Below are positions 53,649 to 63,902 of a stretch of DNA of 64,000 bases, in pieces (positions within the stretch are counted from its first letter, which is position 1; each line of letters starts with the position of its first letter). The notes beneath the pieces were generated by a model that ran no database searches, was not told the origin of the DNA, and saw only the letters and a program-made list of their open reading frames with translations. The DNA comes from Dehalococcoidia bacterium (lineage in GTDB: Bacteria; Chloroflexota; Dehalococcoidia; Lucifugimonadales; UBA3495), in the NCBI GenBank assembly GCA_965220505.1, contig CBDCQE010000001.1, forward strand, positions 1,115,082-1,179,081, written 5' to 3'. The translations under genes and the position numbers were made by a program.

Positions 53649-54980
53649 ATGCCGACGAAAGAAGAGTTGAAGGACCGGGCATTCGCCGAGATCGATTCCC
53701 GCGCCGAGGAACTGATCACCCTGTCCAAGCAGATCCTGGCCAACCCCGAGCCGGGCTTCCGGGAATTCAAGACCGCCGCGCTGGTCGGCGAGCAGTTCGC
53801 AGCGATGGGAGTGCCCTTCCGGTCCGGTCTGGGCATGACGGGCCTGCGCGGAGAAATCATCGGCGGCAGCGAAGGGCCGAGCATGGCGATCATGGGCGAA
53901 CTGGACAGCCTGATCGTCAACGAGCACCCGCACGCGGACGGGGACACCGGCGCGGCCCACGCCTGCGGACATCACTGCCAGATCGCCATGATGCTGGGCG
54001 TCACCAGGGCGCTGATGCGGGACGACGTCCTGCCCCACCTGAGCGGGCGCATATTGCCCATGGCGGTACCGGCCGAGGAATACATCGAGATCGAATACCG
54101 GGACCAGTTGCGCCGGGATGGCAAGATCGAATTCCTGGGCGGCAAACCGGAGTTCATCAAGCTGGGTGAGTTCGACGACGTGCACCTGGCCATGATGATG
54201 CACACTACCAGCGCGCCCAGCGAGAAGCAGTTGTGCCTCACGGGCACCAACAACGGCACCGTTGCCAAGAAGATACAGTTCGTGGGCAAGGGAGCCCACG
54301 CCGGCGGTTCGCCGCACCTGGGGATCAACGCGCTGAACGCGGCGACGTTGGCGATGTCGGCGATCCACTTCAACCGCGAGACCTTCCTGGACACCGACAC
54401 GGTTCGCGTGCACCCCATCATCACCAAGGGAGGTGAAGCAGTGAGCGCGGTGCCGGCGGACGTGCGGATGGAGACCTTCGTCAGGGGCAAGACCCTGGAC
54501 GCCATCATGGACGCCAATCGCAAGGTCGACCGCGCCCTGCGGGCGGGGGCCATGGCGATGGGCGCCACGGTGACCATTCAGACCATTCCCGGATATATGC
54601 CCATGTTGCAGGACGACCGAATGCAGGCCATATTCCGCGCAAACGCCGAAAAGCTGGTGGGCGTCGAGAACGTCGGTCGCACGGAGCACCGGACCGGCAG
54701 CACCGACATGGGCGACGTGAGCGCCATTATGCCCGTACTGCATCCCTACGTGGGCGGCGCCACCGGGATCGGCCACGGCGCGGACTACGTGATCCAGGAC
54801 TACCAGATGGCCGTGGTGACCGGAGCGAAAGCCATGGCATCTACGGTCATCGACCTGATGGCTGACGGAGCAAAGGAGGCCAACCAGGTGGTCGCAAACC
54901 ACCGGCCCGACATGACATCACGGGAATACCTGAAATTCATGCGGGGACTGGCGGCCGAGGAAACCTACACGGAGAAATAA
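53649..54980 (+). CDS. M20-family amidohydrolase/peptidase (AbgA/hippurate-hydrolase-like), paralog 1
   Basis: PEPGFREFKT and the metal-binding AAHACGHH motif. Length is 443 aa. RBS GGAGGG. Confidence 0.82.
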   Translation: MPTKEELKDRAFAEIDSRAEELITLSKQILANPEPGFREFKTAALVGEQFAAMGVPFRSGLGMTGLRGEIIGGSEGPSMAIMGELDSLIVNEHPHADGDTGAAHACGHHCQIAMMLGVTRALMRDDVLPHLSGRILPMAVPAEEYIEIEYRDQLRRDGKIEFLGGKPEFIKLGEFDDVHLAMMMHTTSAPSEKQLCLTGTNNGTVAKKIQFVGKGAHAGGSPHLGINALNAATLAMSAIHFNRETFLDTDTVRVHPIITKGGEAVSAVPADVRMETFVRGKTLDAIMDANRKVDRALRAGAMAMGATVTIQTIPGYMPMLQDDRMQAIFRANAEKLVGVENVGRTEHRTGSTDMGDVSAIMPVLHPYVGGATGIGHGADYVIQDYQMAVVTGAKAMASTVIDLMADGAKEANQVVANHRPDMTSREYLKFMRGLAAEETYTEK

Positions 54981-55067
54981 CCCCCGCGGCCCGTTCTGCG
55001 GGACCTCCCTCCGATACAACCTGAATCCAGCGCCCGAATCTCCCCTCCAGCACACGGAACGGATTGC

Positions 55068-56417
55068 ATGGCCACGCGCGAAGAACTGAAGCAGGCGGCA
55101 TGCGCCGCGATCGACCGGCACAGCGATGACCTGATCGCGGTGTCCAAAGACATCCTGGAACACCCGGAGCCGGGATACAGCGAATACCGGACGGCCCGGG
55201 TCGTTGCAGAGCAGTTCGCCAAGCTCGGAGTGCAGTTCCGCGCCAACCTGGCGTTGACCGGGCTCAAGGGGAATCTCAAAGGCGGCGCCGGAACCGGTCC
55301 GCGCGTGGCAATCATTGGAGAACTGGACAGCCTGATCGTGGACGGCCACCCCCACGCTGCCGACGCCACCAACGCGGCCCACGCCTGCGGGCACAACTGT
55401 CAGATCGGAATGATGCTGGGAGCAGTGATCGGGCTATCGACGTCGGAGGTGTTGCCCGAACTGAACGGGGAGATTGTGCCCTTTGCCGTACCGGCAGAGG
55501 AGTTCATCGAGGTCGCGAGGCGGTTGGACCTGCGGGAGCAAGGGAAGATCGAGTTCATGGGCGGCAAGCAGGAGTTGATCCGGCTGGGTGAGTTCGACGA
55601 CGTTGACATCGCGATGATGTGCCACACCGCCAGCGACATGGGTTCGCACTCCTTCGCCTTGGGTGGCACGAGCAACGGGCACGTGGTCAAGTACGTGCAG
55701 TTCAAAGGCCGCGCCGCCCACGCGGGATCATCGCCGCACCTGGGCATCAATGCGCTGAACGCGGCCAACTTCGCGCTACAGGCAGTGAACGCCAACCGGG
55801 AGCTTTACCGGGACCCGGATACGGTGCGGATCCACGGCATCATGACGCACGGGGGGCAGGCGGTAAACTCAGTGCCGTCGGACGTGCGGCTGGAATGGCG
55901 GGTGCGGGCGGGCACTCCCGAAGCGGTGGTGCGTTACTCGGACATCGTGGACCGCTGCTTCCGGTCGGGCGCGTTGGCGGTGGGAGCATCGGTGTCAATC
56001 ACCAACATACCGGGTTATTTGCCCATGCGGCACGACCAGAACCTGATGGACGTGTTAAGCGCGAACGCGAAAGATTTGCTAAAGGAGAGCCACGTTCTCA
56101 TTATGCCGCCCTCGCGTAACCGGGGCGGGTCCACGGACATGGGTGACCTGAGCCACATAATTCCGGCGATCCACCCGTATACCGCCGGCGCACAAGGAGC
56201 GGGTCACAGCTCGGAATACCTGATCATGGATTACCACCAAGCGGTGGTGAATCCGGCAAAGGTCATGGCGATGTCGGTGATCGACCTGCTGGCGGATAAC
56301 GCCGAAGGGGCGAAGCGGGTTACAACCTCGTTCCGTCCGGCGATGTCCAAGGGGTCGTACCTGAACTTCCAGCGCCAGCGTGCGGAAGTGGTCGAGTTCG
56401 ACGGCGCCTCTACCTGA
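55068..56417 (+). CDS. M20-family amidohydrolase/peptidase, paralog 2
   Basis: It is collinear with the upstream paralog (PEPGYSEYRT, AAHACGHN, HAGSSPHLGINALNAA). Confidence 0.82.
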   Translation: MATREELKQAACAAIDRHSDDLIAVSKDILEHPEPGYSEYRTARVVAEQFAKLGVQFRANLALTGLKGNLKGGAGTGPRVAIIGELDSLIVDGHPHAADATNAAHACGHNCQIGMMLGAVIGLSTSEVLPELNGEIVPFAVPAEEFIEVARRLDLREQGKIEFMGGKQELIRLGEFDDVDIAMMCHTASDMGSHSFALGGTSNGHVVKYVQFKGRAAHAGSSPHLGINALNAANFALQAVNANRELYRDPDTVRIHGIMTHGGQAVNSVPSDVRLEWRVRAGTPEAVVRYSDIVDRCFRSGALAVGASVSITNIPGYLPMRHDQNLMDVLSANAKDLLKESHVLIMPPSRNRGGSTDMGDLSHIIPAIHPYTAGAQGAGHSSEYLIMDYHQAVVNPAKVMAMSVIDLLADNAEGAKRVTTSFRPAMSKGSYLNFQRQRAEVVEFDGAST

Positions 56418-59223: not shown

Positions 59224-61116
59224 TCAGGGTAGCCACTTGTACCACAACAAAGCGCCGTAAGCGATAGTCACCAGCAATCCGATTACGATTGATGTGGTCT
59301 GCTCCAACCGTCGGCTGACCGCGTCGCGGAACACTACACCATATCCCTCGTAGAAAACTGCGCCTTCGTGGTCTTGATATTGCTGCTCTTCCAATATGTC
59401 GCCGGCCCGGTCGCGGTGCAGATCCCACACGTTGATAATCAGGAATACGATAACGGCGGAGAACAGCACCACCAACATTTCGACGAGGAAGCCGATCCAG
59501 CCGGTTACGCCGGGACGCGAGGCCATGCCGATGAACACGGTAATGCCGCCGAATATGATCAGCGCAAACAACTCACCGAACTCGATGCCCTGTTGCCGTG
59601 AATGGGCGATGACGTTGAGCTGGGTTTCGGCCTCGGCGAGTTGGACCTGATCGTCAGGGTTGGGATTCGATGCCTCGGCCCGGTCCAAACAATCCTTGGT
59701 GTCCTGGTAAGCGGTTTTCAGTTGTTCGGGAGTCACCGCCTTGTCAATGCTGATGACGTGCATTCGGGCGGCCTGGTGGATTACGTCGCGGCGGGCCAGC
59801 AAGTCAACGTTCTGGAACAGGGTGTAGAGGCGGTTATCCTCTTCCTGGGTCTGTGTGGATAGCCGGGCTACCCGGAAGGAGCGCAACAGAGTGAACACAG
59901 TGGCGGACAGGCCCAGGGCGCCGAAGTAGGTTTCTCCGGGCCACTGCCATTCACCAAAGGGCAGGTATTGCAGCACATCGTCCCGCAGATAGACGAAGGC
60001 GCCGCAGGTCCACAGGGCCAGCAGCAGAGCCTTGAAGCCGAACCTGACCTCCGCCTCAGAGTTAATCAGCAGGTTGACGATGACTATTCCTATGATCCCA
60101 ATGATGAGATAGTCCAAGTTCTCCGGCTGAGTCTGGGTGAGCAAAAAGAGCCATGCCAGGCTGAATACGGGAGCCGCAAAGGCCAGAGCGTTGACGCCCG
60201 CGTGGTGGGCAATAAGGTTGGCTTTACGCCAGGCCGCGTTGGCGATGCCGCTGGCTGCGCCGCCCACGACAATCGCGATGAAGAGCGAGCGGGAATCCAT
60301 CACTTCGCCGCTGCTGATTCCGACAAAGGTGTTCAAAAGGCCGGAGACGGCGCTGGCGATAAGGAGGGCAACCAGAAGGCCCAAGAAGTCCAAATCGCCT
60401 TGATCCGGGGCCTCGTCTTGGTCCGACTCATCGTCCGCGGTGACTGGCCGGCCCGCATGTGAAATTTCTTCCGCCAGGTCGGTTCCCCAGCGGAATCCGA
60501 AGGCGTTGCAGGCGGTGGCAATTGCGCCCAGCGTCGCGAGGACGACACCGATGACGAGCTCGGCGAGACGACCGGTTTCGACGTTCTGGAAGCCGCCGGC
60601 CTGCCCGACAATGATGAAGGCGAAACCCAGCAAGCCAAATGCGATCAACAACAATATTTCAGGGGAGAGCCGGTGGTATCGCTCTTCATGTTTGTACAAT
60701 CGGTCGTGAATGATGACAATGAAAATCGGCCAGGTACCGAACATGATGGCGCTGATGGACACGTCCACAAAGCGAGTCGACCAGGCCAAAAAGGCGAAGT
60801 TGAAGTTGGCGGCTATGGAGAGGACAATCCTGTGATCGATGGCACGACCAACGACCAGGCGCAGCATATTGGCGTTGAACAGCAGGGAAGGGTACCGGTA
60901 GGCGATAAAGACCAGACAGCCAAGGACGACACCGGCACTCATGGCGGCGTTGAACAGGAAGGGCGTTTTTCCGCCCCCACCCCAGGAAATGATCAGAGGC
61001 AGGGCCGAAAAGAGGGCTACGGCCAACAGCATGTAGGCATTGGCGAGACGGTTCCCAATCAGGCGGTCCCTGGCCATATTGGGTATCTGTATCAACGTCC
61101 GGGGCGCGTTTCTCAT
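59224..61116 (-). CDS. ~15-TM membrane protein of unrecognised family, tandem paralog 1
   Basis: RBS GGGAGG lies 7 nt upstream of ATG 61116. There are about 12 N-terminal TM segments; the first ~10 are DMT/EamA-like in layout only. A ~105-aa helical soluble insert follows, then 2 TM, a ~50-aa loop and a terminal TM ending LLWYKWLP. Confidence 0.7.
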   Translation of the reverse strand: MRNAPRTLIQIPNMARDRLIGNRLANAYMLLAVALFSALPLIISWGGGGKTPFLFNAAMSAGVVLGCLVFIAYRYPSLLFNANMLRLVVGRAIDHRIVLSIAANFNFAFLAWSTRFVDVSISAIMFGTWPIFIVIIHDRLYKHEERYHRLSPEILLLIAFGLLGFAFIIVGQAGGFQNVETGRLAELVIGVVLATLGAIATACNAFGFRWGTDLAEEISHAGRPVTADDESDQDEAPDQGDLDFLGLLVALLIASAVSGLLNTFVGISSGEVMDSRSLFIAIVVGGAASGIANAAWRKANLIAHHAGVNALAFAAPVFSLAWLFLLTQTQPENLDYLIIGIIGIVIVNLLINSEAEVRFGFKALLLALWTCGAFVYLRDDVLQYLPFGEWQWPGETYFGALGLSATVFTLLRSFRVARLSTQTQEEDNRLYTLFQNVDLLARRDVIHQAARMHVISIDKAVTPEQLKTAYQDTKDCLDRAEASNPNPDDQVQLAEAETQLNVIAHSRQQGIEFGELFALIIFGGITVFIGMASRPGVTGWIGFLVEMLVVLFSAVIVFLIINVWDLHRDRAGDILEEQQYQDHEGAVFYEGYGVVFRDAVSRRLEQTTSIVIGLLVTIAYGALLWYKWLP

Positions 61117-61132
61117 TCGCCGGCCTCCCGGT

Positions 61133-62956
61133 TCAGCTGATCCATTTGTACCAGAGCAGCACCGCGTAGGCAGCTATTATCAGCAAGCCGATTACAACCG
61201 ACACGCCCCGTTCAAATCGGCGGCTTCTGGGATCGCGAAAGATTACGCCGTAACCCTCCGGCCCCTCCTGGGTGTCCAGGACCAGGTTGGCGCGGTCCCG
61301 ATGCAAGTCCCACACGTTGACAATGAGGAAGATTATCACCGCCGGGAACAGCGCGCTGAATACCTCATACAGGAATGCCGTCCATCCCGAGACCTCAGGC
61401 CGGGACAGCAAGGACAGCAGCACGGTGCTGCCGCCGAAAATGATGAGGGCAAATAGCTCGCCAAAGTCCACGCCCTGCTGGCGGGAGTGGACCATCATGT
61501 TGAGCTGGGTCTCGGCGTTGGCCAACAGCCGGCGGTCGGCGACGGGCAGGTCCACGGCGGCGGCCTGAACGAAACAGAATTTGACCCGAGTGTAGGCACG
61601 TCGCAGTTCTTCGACGTTCCGGGAGCCGTCGACGGCGCGGAGATGTTCGCTGGCCTCGGGAGCGATCAGGCGGCGGCGGGCCAGCAGTTCCAGGTTGCGG
61701 TGCAAGGCGAAGATGCGGTTGTCCTCGTCCTGGGTGCGTGGAGCGATGCGGGCGACGCGGAAGGTGAGCAGCAGGATAAAGACAGTGGCCGAGAAGCCCA
61801 GGGCGCCCAGGTAGGTCTCCCGAGGCCAGAGCCAGCCGCCAAAGGGGAGGTAGATTAGGAATTCGTCGCGGAGATAGACGAAGGCGCCACAGCCCCAGAG
61901 GGCCAGCATCAAAGCTTTAAACCCAAAACGTATATCAGCCTCAAAGTTGATAAGGAGATTTGTGGAGATGATGGCGACTGCGCCGATGACCAAGTAGTCA
62001 ACACGGAGCACATCAACCTTTCCGAACACCGCAAGCCAAGCGAGGCTAGCGACCGGTATCGCGTACCCAAGCGCGTTGATACCAAGATTCGTGGTGACCA
62101 TATTGGCCTTGCGTAGCAGGATGCTCGCAGGAGCATGCAAGAGCAAACCACCCAATGCGGCGACTGTAAGCATACTAAGGTTTACGGGGCCTCCCGAAGC
62201 GAAACCGATCCCGGCGTTCATCACTGCAACCAAGAAGCTGCTGATCCCGAACCCAAGAATCACTCCAAAAAAGACCGTACCGTCATTGCCTAAATGAAAA
62301 CGGGCCGCCTCCTTCAGCCTTCCGGCCAACTCCCTACCCCACACAAATGGGAAAGCACCAAGAGAGGCTGCGACCGCTGCCAGAAGCGCAAGAAAGACAC
62401 CGAACAGGATGTCGGAAAAAAGCACTCCATCGAAACTGACAAAATCCTCGGTCTGGCTGCCGACTACCAGGACAAAGCCTCCTAACGCTACAACCAGAAA
62501 GAGAAAGATGGATTGGAAATTCCTCCGATAGACCCTTTCTTCACGGAGCAGCCAGCCAGTCAGCAGTATGAAGAATACGGGCCATGTTTCGAGAAGGATC
62601 GCAGCAATTGAAACATCGACGAAGCGAGTCGCCCAAGCGAACAGAGCATAGTCAAAATTTCCGATAGTGGCCCAGAAGATTGCCCAACTCGCGGTGTGGC
62701 GGGCGGCCAAGGAAATCACCACCGGGTCCATGATCAACGACCGGTAGAGCGCCAACAAGACTAGGGCACAACCCCCGGCAACCCCCAATCTCCACGCCGC
62801 ATTGAACAGGAACGGATTCTCAAAACCGCCGGCCTGGCTAATCAACAACGGTACGAGCGAATAAAAAAACACCGCCATGAGCATATAGCCGGCGGCGAGA
62901 TTGTTATTTGAATCCCTATTTGTGGACTCAGCAGCCATGACAACGGATTGTAGCAC
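61133..62956 (-). CDS. ~15-TM membrane protein of unrecognised family, tandem paralog 2
   Basis: It is collinear with paralog 1 throughout (e.g. LINFEADIRFGFKALMLALWGCGAFVYLRDE vs LINSEAEVRFGFKALLLALWTCGAFVYLRDD; ends LLWYKWIS). The start is uncertain (GTG 62956 or ATG 62938). Confidence 0.7.
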   Translation of the reverse strand: MLQSVVMAAESTNRDSNNNLAAGYMLMAVFFYSLVPLLISQAGGFENPFLFNAAWRLGVAGGCALVLLALYRSLIMDPVVISLAARHTASWAIFWATIGNFDYALFAWATRFVDVSIAAILLETWPVFFILLTGWLLREERVYRRNFQSIFLFLVVALGGFVLVVGSQTEDFVSFDGVLFSDILFGVFLALLAAVAASLGAFPFVWGRELAGRLKEAARFHLGNDGTVFFGVILGFGISSFLVAVMNAGIGFASGGPVNLSMLTVAALGGLLLHAPASILLRKANMVTTNLGINALGYAIPVASLAWLAVFGKVDVLRVDYLVIGAVAIISTNLLINFEADIRFGFKALMLALWGCGAFVYLRDEFLIYLPFGGWLWPRETYLGALGFSATVFILLLTFRVARIAPRTQDEDNRIFALHRNLELLARRRLIAPEASEHLRAVDGSRNVEELRRAYTRVKFCFVQAAAVDLPVADRRLLANAETQLNMMVHSRQQGVDFGELFALIIFGGSTVLLSLLSRPEVSGWTAFLYEVFSALFPAVIIFLIVNVWDLHRDRANLVLDTQEGPEGYGVIFRDPRSRRFERGVSVVIGLLIIAAYAVLLWYKWIS

Positions 62957-63194
62957 GGCGATTAAGACCGCCTTGCCACGCTCATAGTAGGCGACTATAT
63001 TGTTGCGCTGGTGGAGAACGCTGCCGAGGGATAGAAATGGCTATTGCAGAGATAAGCGAGTTTCGGATGCATGACCAGGTGTTCGGCGCGACGGACTTTC
63101 CGGCGCTGGCACTGGTACAAGGTGGGTTGGGCAGCGGGCGGTAGGAACCCGAGTGTAACCCGGTCAACCACTTGTGGAAGCGGTTGATCGTGCG

Positions 63195-63902
63195 CTAACG
63201 TCCTCCGCGCAGCCGACGCAACTCGGCTTGCAGTTCCCGCACTTGCGCCTCCGCGGTTTCTGCCCGGGCGGTCTGTGATTGGAAGGTTGGGATGTGCTCT
63301 CCGGTAGCGGGATCATGCCAACCCAGATAGCCGCCATCAACCCTCAGGATCAAGTTCAGCGCCGCGCTATAACCCTGGAACACGCCGGCCCGGATCTCGT
63401 GCATCTCTATCTCCTCGTATTTCCCATCCACCAACCGGTAACCCCGCAACGTGAACCCGTAGAACCGACCTTCGCTGTCGAACAGCCAGTATTCAGATAC
63501 GCCCAGCCGCTCGTAGTAATCCTTCTTCGGCCCCAGATCGTCGTTGGAAGTGCGTTGGGAGGCCACCTCCAGGATGAAGTCCGGCGGCTTGGCCTGCTCG
63601 GACACGACGTAGCCGTTGCGGGCCTCGTAGGCGGCGGGGTCAGCGTCGAAGGCCACCAGCAGGTCCGGGTAGCGGCAGTCGTTGGGGTCGTAGTCTGGCC
63701 CGAGGATGACGTAGCGTTCGCCGGTGACCAGGGTGGTGTCGTGGTTGCCCAGGTATTGAGAAAGGTGGTGGGTCTGACCCGGTTCGTGCAGATGTTTTAC
63801 GGAGGTCATGTCGTCGGGATGACGCTGCGGGATGTCGGGCAGGGGGAAGGGTTGGGCCGGGGCGGATGCCGCGGGCGGGTTGGCGGGTCGTGCTGTGGTC
63901 AT
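63195..63902 (-). CDS. Uma2 family (DUF820) endonuclease with coiled-coil tail, second copy
   Basis: YPDLLVAFDADP...PPDFILEVASQRT...KKDYYERLGVSEYWLFD. The C-terminus is ARAETAEAQVRELQAELRRLRGGR. Confidence 0.8.
   Translation of the reverse strand: MTTARPANPPAASAPAQPFPLPDIPQRHPDDMTSVKHLHEPGQTHHLSQYLGNHDTTLVTGERYVILGPDYDPNDCRYPDLLVAFDADPAAYEARNGYVVSEQAKPPDFILEVASQRTSNDDLGPKKDYYERLGVSEYWLFDSEGRFYGFTLRGYRLVDGKYEEIEMHEIRAGVFQGYSAALNLILRVDGGYLGWHDPATGEHIPTFQSQTARAETAEAQVRELQAELRRLRGGR

Follow-up and report, generated by a model that had tools for sequence, protein, structure and literature searches.

Which kind of protein is encoded by two adjacent paralogous genes of a Dehalococcoidia bacterium, and why are their products much more alike in the C-terminal parts than in the N-terminal parts? 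These questions are raised by a locus in the window, i.e., a stretch of 64,000 nucleotides (nt) from contig CBDCQE010000001.1 of the assembly GCA_965220505.1. Gene A (59224-61116, minus strand) encodes a membrane protein of 630 amino acids (aa). Gene B (61133-62956, minus strand) lies upstream of A and encodes a membrane protein of 607 aa. Each protein consists of a transport domain that belongs to the superfamily of drug/metabolite transporters (DMT) and of a C-terminal module, below called the C-module. We propose, with a probability of about 0.6, that A and B are a pair of DMT transporters in which a shared, constrained C-terminal scaffold is combined with transport cores that are swapped among related lineages.

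Domain structure of the two proteins

A and B can be aligned over their full length with 46% identity (BLASTP, E = 2e-175), and the profile of their family recognizes them with 961 and 943 bits, respectively. Together with the coordinates of the open reading frames (ORFs), this bears out the preliminary description of the locus as two collinear same-strand paralogs with a 16-nt gap. The 607-aa frame of B begins with GTG at 62956. An alternative start, ATG at 62938, gives a protein of 601 aa; it is used by the database entry and by most homologs and is probably the true one. The spacer between the genes (61117-61132, minus strand) contains a GGGAGG ribosome-binding site of the Shine-Dalgarno type 8 nt ahead of the ATG of A, and a terminator scan found none in these 16 nt. 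Judging by this site and by the lack of a terminator-like one, B and then A would form one operon and be co-transcribed. An identical 16-nt gap is found in nine of the 18 complete loci with a tandem B-A pair. Among the related loci, which are labeled below with L and a number, L038 has an A protein 98% identical to that of the window.

According to an AlphaFold2 model and a hydropathy scan, each protein has ~15 transmembrane (TM) helices: ten TM helices, two further ones, a helical insert of ~97 aa, two more, a loop of ~23 aa, and a terminal one. The model of B was built from an alignment of 53 sequences and has a mean pLDDT of 76, with values of about 85-95 over residues 20-330. Its first ten TM helices extend as far as residue 338 (helices 15-338). 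TM10 is followed by TM11, then by a WxWP loop that is short and conserved, and by TM12, which runs into the ~97-aa helical region. TM13, TM14, the ~23-aa loop, and TM15 close the C-terminal part. Counts of lysine and arginine residues (K/R) place the loops 137-146 and 206-223, the insert (16 K/R), and the loop with the motif WDLHRDR in the cytoplasm. The outer loops have 0-2 K/R, the WxWP loop has none, and the topology agrees with the positive-inside rule. Thus the common TM layout with a cytoplasmic-looking insert, which had been noticed earlier, is confirmed by the model, the hydropathy scan, and the K/R counts.

The N-terminal ~335 aa can be assigned, on the basis of the predicted fold and of profile-profile comparison, to the DMT superfamily as a divergent member. 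This N-domain occupies 61961-62956 (minus strand, residues 1 to ~332) in B and 60070-61116 (minus strand) in A, where the cytoplasmic loop TM6-TM7 has an acidic insertion. The top PDB match to the model of B in Foldseek is YddG (5i20; TMt 0.70-0.73, E = 1.6e-5). The next matches are the triose-phosphate translocator TPT (5y78; TMt 0.64) and CST, Vrg4, and SLC35B1 of the SLC35 family of nucleotide-sugar transporters (0.49-0.61). In hhalign, a profile of 133 N-domain rows matches 12 EamA proteins with a probability of 95.6% and E = 1.2e-8 over 277 columns. The alignment covers positions 5-324 of the N-domain and 39-322 of EamA, so both repeats are included. Three of the 12 target proteins were checked in Pfam, where they give EamA twice with E about 1e-42 to 1e-45. 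The preliminary description, which had found the first helices to be only loosely similar to a DMT/EamA layout, has to be corrected in this point: both the fold (YddG) and hhalign indicate a complete two-repeat EamA/DMT domain. A transport activity of the N-domain is presumed.

Two stand-alone proteins of 342 aa, L021 15301-16329 and L023 19994-21022, both on the minus strand, match only the N-domain of the family, with 43-46% identity. They lie 6-8 kb from the gene pair, have no Pfam match, and have a divergent junction motif. These proteins are the DMT domain without the C-module.

The C-module of B (61133-61954, minus strand) comprises residues 335-607 with TM11, the outer WxWP loop, TM12, the ~97-aa insert, TM13, TM14, the WDLHRDR loop, and TM15. 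The C-module of A (59224-60069, minus strand) has 281 aa. No other part of the family is as conserved as the C-module, which includes the near-invariant blocks NLLINFEAE.RFGFKAL, SATVF.LLL.FRVARL..RT.DEDNR, HSRQQG..FGELFALIIFGG, VNVWDLHRDR, and LLW.KW. Neither alone nor as a profile does it match Pfam, NCBIfam, or PDB sequences, and the profile of the full-length family has no meaningful match among PDB sequences. With no Pfam or NCBIfam model above the threshold and with hundreds of unnamed homologs, the family is indeed an unrecognized one, as had been supposed, and its C-terminal module an undescribed one.

Between A and B, the N-domains are 36% and the C-modules 59% identical. The greater similarity of the C-terminal halves had been claimed before; the direction is right, and the figures of ~70% and ~45% given for the C-terminal and N-terminal halves are not. 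Two explanations had been offered for it, gene conversion and stronger constraint. Identity of A to B is practically equal within genomes (39.5% in the N-domain, 59.0% in the C-module) and across genomes (39.3% and 59.2%). Additionally, A and B form separate clades with supports of 100/100 and 94/100 in a tree of 63 full-length rows; the tree leaves out a subgroup of ~650-aa proteins, whose matches were split by the filter. Gene conversion between A and B is therefore ruled out. The other explanation holds: the C-modules are more alike because they are more strongly constrained, and among orthologs the C-modules are 79-83% and the N-domains 49-68% identical. Part of the low N-terminal identity is also due to the cassette exchange of the N-domain described below. 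The duplication that gave rise to A and B is older than the divergence of the genomes carrying the pair. Orthologs of B are generally more divergent than those of A, and the branches of the B clade are long.

Mosaic structure of the locus

Comparison with the related genomes L038, L018, and L020 reveals an abrupt break inside gene B. In the cysteine desulfurase gene, which lies downstream of A, in A itself, and in the C-module of B, the identity at the DNA level is 88-93%. Then the identity is 40-55% up to ~63200, and it is 86-93% in the Uma2 gene upstream of B. Blastn and sliding identity delimit the replaced block to 61990-63200, i.e., ~1.2 kb that include the N-domain of B and the 238-nt region upstream of B; by these measures the block has 40-55% and its surroundings have 90-98% identity. 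Its 3' junction is a transition zone at 61850-61990, where the end of TM10 passes into TM11; the similarity falls there within about 100-150 nt. The 5' junction is the end of the Uma2 gene. In these four genomes including the window's one, the N-domains of B are 37-42% identical, the C-modules of B are 90-93% identical, and the A proteins are 89-99% identical. The reading frame is unbroken across the junction in every pair.

At a threshold of 70% identity, the N-domains of B from the 18 pairs fall into ten clusters, and the C-modules fall into one. Most of the N-domain types are 31-45% identical to each other. The identity between types is 28-59% throughout TM1-TM8 and rises to 69-74% at TM9-TM10; the differences are not confined to the outer loops. 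Among 5.8 billion proteins, the nearest N-domain to that of the window's B is 58% identical, and the C-module of the same protein is just 45% identical. Conversely, proteins with 93-95% identical C-modules carry N-domains with only 38-40% identity. At the same site, certain genes that occur in a single copy combine N-domains 59-79% identical to B cassettes with C-modules of ~50% identity. The cassette types thus follow neither the remaining locus nor deeper lineages. The N-domain of L040 is 79% identical to that of L032_B, and its C-module just ~50%. L018 shares its type of the B N-domain with L030, L035, and L023 (86-87% identity), and the A genes and B C-modules of these loci belong to different haplotypes.

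The exchanged part also differs in composition. GC content at third codon positions (GC3) is 0.41-0.69 in B N-domains (0.78 in one genome) against 0.74-0.88 in their own C-modules, with a shift of 0.15-0.4 exactly at the junction. In the window, B has GC3 of 0.62 in the N-domain and 0.79 in the C-module, and the N-domain of A has a normal GC3 of 0.74, as the N-domains of A are normal in general. Within a cassette type, the ratio of nonsynonymous to synonymous divergence (dN/dS) is 0.09-0.11, so the cassettes are functional and under purifying selection. Silent donor cassettes in the genome of the window were considered as a source of the variants and rejected: this genome has just two copies of the family, A and B.

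The cysteine desulfurase and two M20 peptidases downstream of it were used as a baseline for the history of the flanks. They unite nine genomes (the window's genome, L038, L018, L020, L030, L035, L023, L021, and L019) into one group with 91-98% aa identity, which the flank tree supports at 100%. Among genomes with such flanks, the N-domains of B are 37-42% identical. In approximately unbiased (AU) tests, descent of the group as one clade is rejected for the N-domain of B (log-likelihood difference, dlnL, of 303, p = 1e-5), for the N-domain of A (dlnL 69, p = 3e-5), and for the C-module of B (dlnL 37, p = 0.006). It is not rejected for the C-module of A (dlnL 5.7, p = 0.10).

Gene A is not a constant background either. 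Its N-domain is dimorphic inside the group, with two types that are 53-56% identical. We therefore rejected gene A as a proxy of the species tree. Two haplotypes of the block that includes the B C-module and gene A can be distinguished in the group; they have identities of 53-56% in the A N-domain, 78-84% in the A C-module, and 77-81% in the B C-module. Five types of the B N-domain are combined with the two haplotypes independently. For example, the DNA of L018 and L030 is 81-94% identical in the flanks and in the B N-domain and just 54-67% identical in the A N-domain. Hence both genes lie inside a mosaic hypervariable island of ~4-5 kb with junctions at the domain boundary of B and at the gene ends. 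The B N-domain is the most diverse segment of the island.

Possible mechanism and its alternatives

We suggest that A and B would act as co-transcribed paralogous secondary transporters. The DMT/EamA domain most likely moves a small metabolite over the cytoplasmic membrane, as YddG-type exporters do, and the C-module would be a common scaffold for oligomerization, gating, or regulation. The simplest mechanism for an exchange of whole transport domains between lineages would be that imported DNA undergoes homologous recombination, with the conserved C-module and the flanks as anchors. The N-domain of B with its upstream region makes up a low-GC cassette of ~1.2 kb that exists in many deeply divergent functional versions, and the N-domain of A has at least two versions in one genome group. 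Related strains would then have the same scaffold with different transport cores, and these would likely confer different substrate specificities or present different exposed membrane proteins. The architecture, the homology to DMT proteins, the pattern of constraint, the mosaic history, and the purifying selection inside cassette types are shown by the data; transport activity, differences in substrate, the role as a scaffold, and co-transcription are what we infer.

Several points weigh against this explanation. The Pfam model of EamA (PF00892) stays under its threshold in B (25.3 bits for residues 22-154 against a cut-off of 28.2), gives no match in A, and reaches E < 0.01 in just three of the 53 family members. 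The internal 5+5 repeat expected for such a domain is not recovered by hhalign between residues 15-172 and 178-340 (probability 0.2%, in an alignment of low diversity). The scaffold role of the C-module is something that we purely infer. The gene context across the subgroups of the family provides no consistent hint of function. No relatives of the family were found among IMG/VR contigs and plasmid and phage records, and no vector, recombinase, or integrase was found. All the relatives compared are metagenome-assembled genomes (MAGs), with uncertain strain-level relationships. Synonymous divergence (dS) of the flanks within the nine-genome group is 0.2-0.7, so the "close" genomes are related like members of a genus and are not clonal. 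Finally, dS of the cassette shared by L018 and L030 is 0.72, i.e., about that of the flanks. Therefore some of the shared cassette types may be vertical, and it may be the neighboring block that was replaced.

Some alternatives deny that DNA was exchanged at all. The B N-domains could have diversified where they are, by positive selection or because they diverge very rapidly, and the greater divergence of B orthologs with the long branches of their clade fits this. Such a process would hardly produce a drop in identity that takes place at a fixed junction within about 100-150 nt, nor a shift in GC3 at the same point. It does not account for the types that recur across differing locus haplotypes and across lineages with C-modules ~50% identical, and it disagrees with the low dN/dS of ~0.1 within types and with the rejection of vertical descent by the AU tests. 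We consider it largely refuted and extremely improbable. Nearly as improbable is a mosaic created artificially when metagenomes were assembled or binned, i.e., chimeric contigs of mixed strains. The exclusive origin of the relatives from MAGs speaks for it, as does the proneness of low-GC segments to mis-assembly and mis-calling, exemplified by the truncation of B by gene callers in L099. But the window belongs to a genome of 3.9 Mb in three contigs, and many of the relatives are single-chromosome assemblies. Moreover, the frame is intact over the junction in every pair, the junction has the same position in independent assemblies, one cassette type occurs in four independent assemblies, and purifying selection is seen at the codon level within the types.

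Another alternative accepts the exchange and assigns it a different cause. The turnover of cassettes could be driven by recognition from outside, e.g., by a phage that uses the protein as a receptor, with negative frequency-dependent selection and not the substrate maintaining the variants. Many deeply divergent low-GC alleles at one site between conserved flanks, as observed here, are the pattern of replacement-type flexible islands. Since Chloroflexota are commonly regarded as monoderm, proteins of their cytoplasmic membrane would be exposed. There is also the circumstantial neighborhood of candidate defense or toxin genes beside the cassette (Uma2 here, a BrnT toxin gene in L099). On the other hand, the divergence extends across TM1-TM8 and is not concentrated in the outer loops, whose length is just 5-13 residues; PADLOC gives no match for A or B; and no phage carries a relative. 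We regard recognition from outside as an unlikely driver; that the types diverge all through the helices is a mild argument for substrate specificity instead. Our preferred reading remains a DMT transporter pair with exchanged cores.

The nature of the C-module is a separate matter. Modeled alone (pLDDT 75.5), the module has almost exclusively bestrophins as its best PDB matches in Foldseek, namely KpBest, VCCN1, and BEST1 with TM-scores of 0.43-0.50 over 250-300 columns and probabilities mostly of 0.9-1.0. These are only three distinct bestrophin proteins, most of the matches are mutant chains of one protein, and the E-values are just 0.05-0.4. The sequence comparison used 18 genuine Bestrophin_2 proteins from Pseudomonadota. 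In hhalign their similarity to the C-module is not significant (probability 0.6-1%, P = 0.056), and homology to bestrophins by hidden Markov model (HMM) comparison was rejected on this ground. The Pfam families PF01062 and PF25539 have no match in the genome of the window or in the 121 and 151 Chloroflexota genomes sampled, despite matches of PF25539 in the E. coli and Synechococcus controls. Under relaxed settings, hhalign aligns the C-module with bestrophins collinearly across all four TM helices (216 columns) and pairs ..FRvxRL..R..E of the family's TM12 with ..FRNnaxYxRwwEAR of bestrophin TM2. The controls are poorer (P = 0.8 for the C-module against EamA and P = 0.15 for the N-domain against bestrophin). 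The invariant residues T57, L61, F65, and R69 lie on a single face of TM12. The module could accordingly be a very divergent bestrophin-fold domain, in which four TM helices go with a helical bundle in the cytosol (cf. KpBest, YneE, and VCCN1), which would make A and B transporter-channel fusions. Their assembly would then proceed around a central pore, possibly as pentamers with the DMT domains at the periphery. The fifth TM helix of the module is absent from bestrophins. We treat the resemblance as a lead that is more apt to fail than to hold, and not as membership in that family.

A bolder combination goes further, and we consider it improbable. It joins the DMT domain to a highly divergent bestrophin-fold channel scaffold, which would be a fusion not seen before, and lets A, as the constant partner, and B, as the variable one, co-assemble via their C-modules into one oligomer. 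The population would keep at least ten interchangeable, functionally distinct heads of B by recombination at the junction. If true, this would be a case of balancing selection acting on a membrane transporter at the level of a domain.

Distribution, neighboring genes, and comparison with known systems

The family is sizeable. Its profile finds 1,645 representatives of clusters at 50% identity with E <= 1e-3, 776 of them with E <= 1e-30, and every named member is a "hypothetical protein". It is nevertheless rare when each species is represented by one genome: besides the genome of the window, a full-length copy is present in one of 400 sampled Chloroflexota genomes. A collection of 185,579 species, with one genome per species, gave 61 loci, nearly all of them in Dehalococcoidia MAGs. 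Those outside Dehalococcoidia are two Acidimicrobiia loci and one Arenicellales locus. The members in the Acidimicrobiia MAGs (L074, L075) and in the Arenicellales MAG (L076 8978-11731) lie outside Chloroflexota and thereby suggest a transfer between phyla. In L076, the ORF of 917 aa may reach too far at its N-terminus. Where no tandem pair is present, there is one copy, either at the syntenic position of the pair or in another place. In L045 (4545-7983, 10001-11845), an intact gene is preceded upstream by a second copy that is broken into pieces of 347, 289, and 94 aa. The piece with the N-domain shares 97% identity with the corresponding domain of L039, which is another genome.

Database entries of 289-344 aa seemed to represent stand-alone proteins with the C-module only. 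They were rejected as such and are probably truncated calls. In L099 (3047-4870) the B homolog was called from the C-module on (289 aa), yet the full 600-aa frame is open (912 bits, HMM positions 2-600); the skipped N-domain has a GC content of 0.47 against 0.62. In L100 (1700-4897) a transposase of the IS66 family is inserted at HMM position ~297-300, just ahead of the domain junction, so that the gene is broken into an N-terminal and a C-terminal piece. In practice this teaches that the low GC content of the N-domain leads gene callers to truncate B and that spurious proteins consisting of the C-module only enter the databases.

Two gene contexts of the family can be distinguished. One includes a thiamine pyrophosphate (TPP) enzyme, a glyoxalase, a hydrolase, the cysteine desulfurase, and the M20 peptidases. 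In the other one, a CoxL-like molybdopterin subunit, a CoxM-like flavin adenine dinucleotide (FAD) subunit, the family gene, and SurE are on one strand; the members here are the single-copy subgroup of ~650 aa (L047-L053, L056, L060, L061, and L066). Since the contexts of the subgroups differ and are metabolically unrelated, deducing the function from synteny was rejected. Literature on the 15-TM DMT architecture and on the origin of the MAG isolates yielded nothing useful; the names of the isolates allow no more than a guess that these MAGs are associated with sponges.

The genes next to the pair were correctly described before as a Uma2 gene and a cysteine desulfurase gene, all on one strand; Pfam and the coordinates agree with this. 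The cysteine desulfurase (class-V aminotransferase, PF00266; 57943-59208, minus strand) flanks the pair downstream. It has 94-98% aa identity within the nine-genome group, and the identity recovers sharply at its start. Its link to the pair is a synteny shared within one related genome group; family members elsewhere have other contexts. Tandem paralogs of M20 peptidases (53649-56417, plus strand) are syntenic in the relatives and, with 91-98% aa identity in the close group, are neutral markers of the flank.

The Uma2-family gene (PF05685; 63195-63902, minus strand) is the upstream flank. It matches the PADLOC candidate defense family PDC-S03 with E = 3.6e-13. The gene is conserved in L038 with ~93% nt identity and is absent at this position in L018. 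In the syntenic L099 (796-2752), a BrnT toxin gene adjoins the cassette. Small genes of the defense or toxin type thus seem to have an insertion hot spot upstream of B. A segment of ~100 nt between the Uma2 gene and B (63037-63137) is 78% identical to a sequence that in L038 and L020 lies across the other side of Uma2. It is single-copy in the window and contains a plus-strand ORF of 35 codons.

The locus is of interest in two respects. It represents a sizeable unnamed family in which a DMT transporter has an obligatory, strongly conserved extra membrane module that is described in no database. For structure determination the family offers a clear target; its module may have a bestrophin-like channel fold. 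At the same time, it provides an unusually clean swap of a single domain by recombination among related uncultured bacteria, with the breakpoint at the domain boundary. Although highly divergent and foreign in composition, the exchanged parts are still under purifying selection. Loci of this kind usually mark the molecules by which strains differ ecologically, i.e., substrates that are taken up or exported and surfaces seen by phages or hosts. The cassette could thus mark niche or host specialization in these Dehalococcoidia.

Three known systems are close to parts of this locus. The N-domain has the same 10-TM fold as exporters of the YddG/EamA kind (PF00892, TCDB 2.A.7, 5i20), with profile homology over both repeats, the typical motif of TM4, a loop rich in E and R, and TM5, and an N-in topology with both termini cytoplasmic. 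Unlike them, it has diverged too far for the Pfam model. Ordinary EamA proteins have ~300 aa, whereas A and B are fused to a five-TM C-terminal module of ~270 aa, occur as a tandem pair, and have their domain exchanged as a cassette. With bestrophins (KpBest/YneE, VCCN1, BEST1) the C-module would, going by its model, share the order and the similar size of TM11-TM14 with the bundle between TM12 and TM13; the weak alignment pairs the FR..R..E motif in the second helix, and theirs is the sole fold family among its top PDB matches. It differs from them in the lack of significant sequence or profile similarity, in the extra terminal TM helix, and in never being seen alone. As a whole, the locus resembles replacement-type flexible islands: it occupies a fixed site between conserved flanks, has deeply divergent alleles in relatives, and combines a low GC content of its variable part with a phylogeny that conflicts with that of the flanks. 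O-antigen and capsule loci with divergent wzx/wzy alleles are examples of hypervariable surface loci. In contrast to these multi-gene glycosylation clusters, what is exchanged here is just one domain of a protein, together with its promoter region (~1.2 kb), one breakpoint lies within a gene at the domain boundary, and the product is a polytopic transporter.

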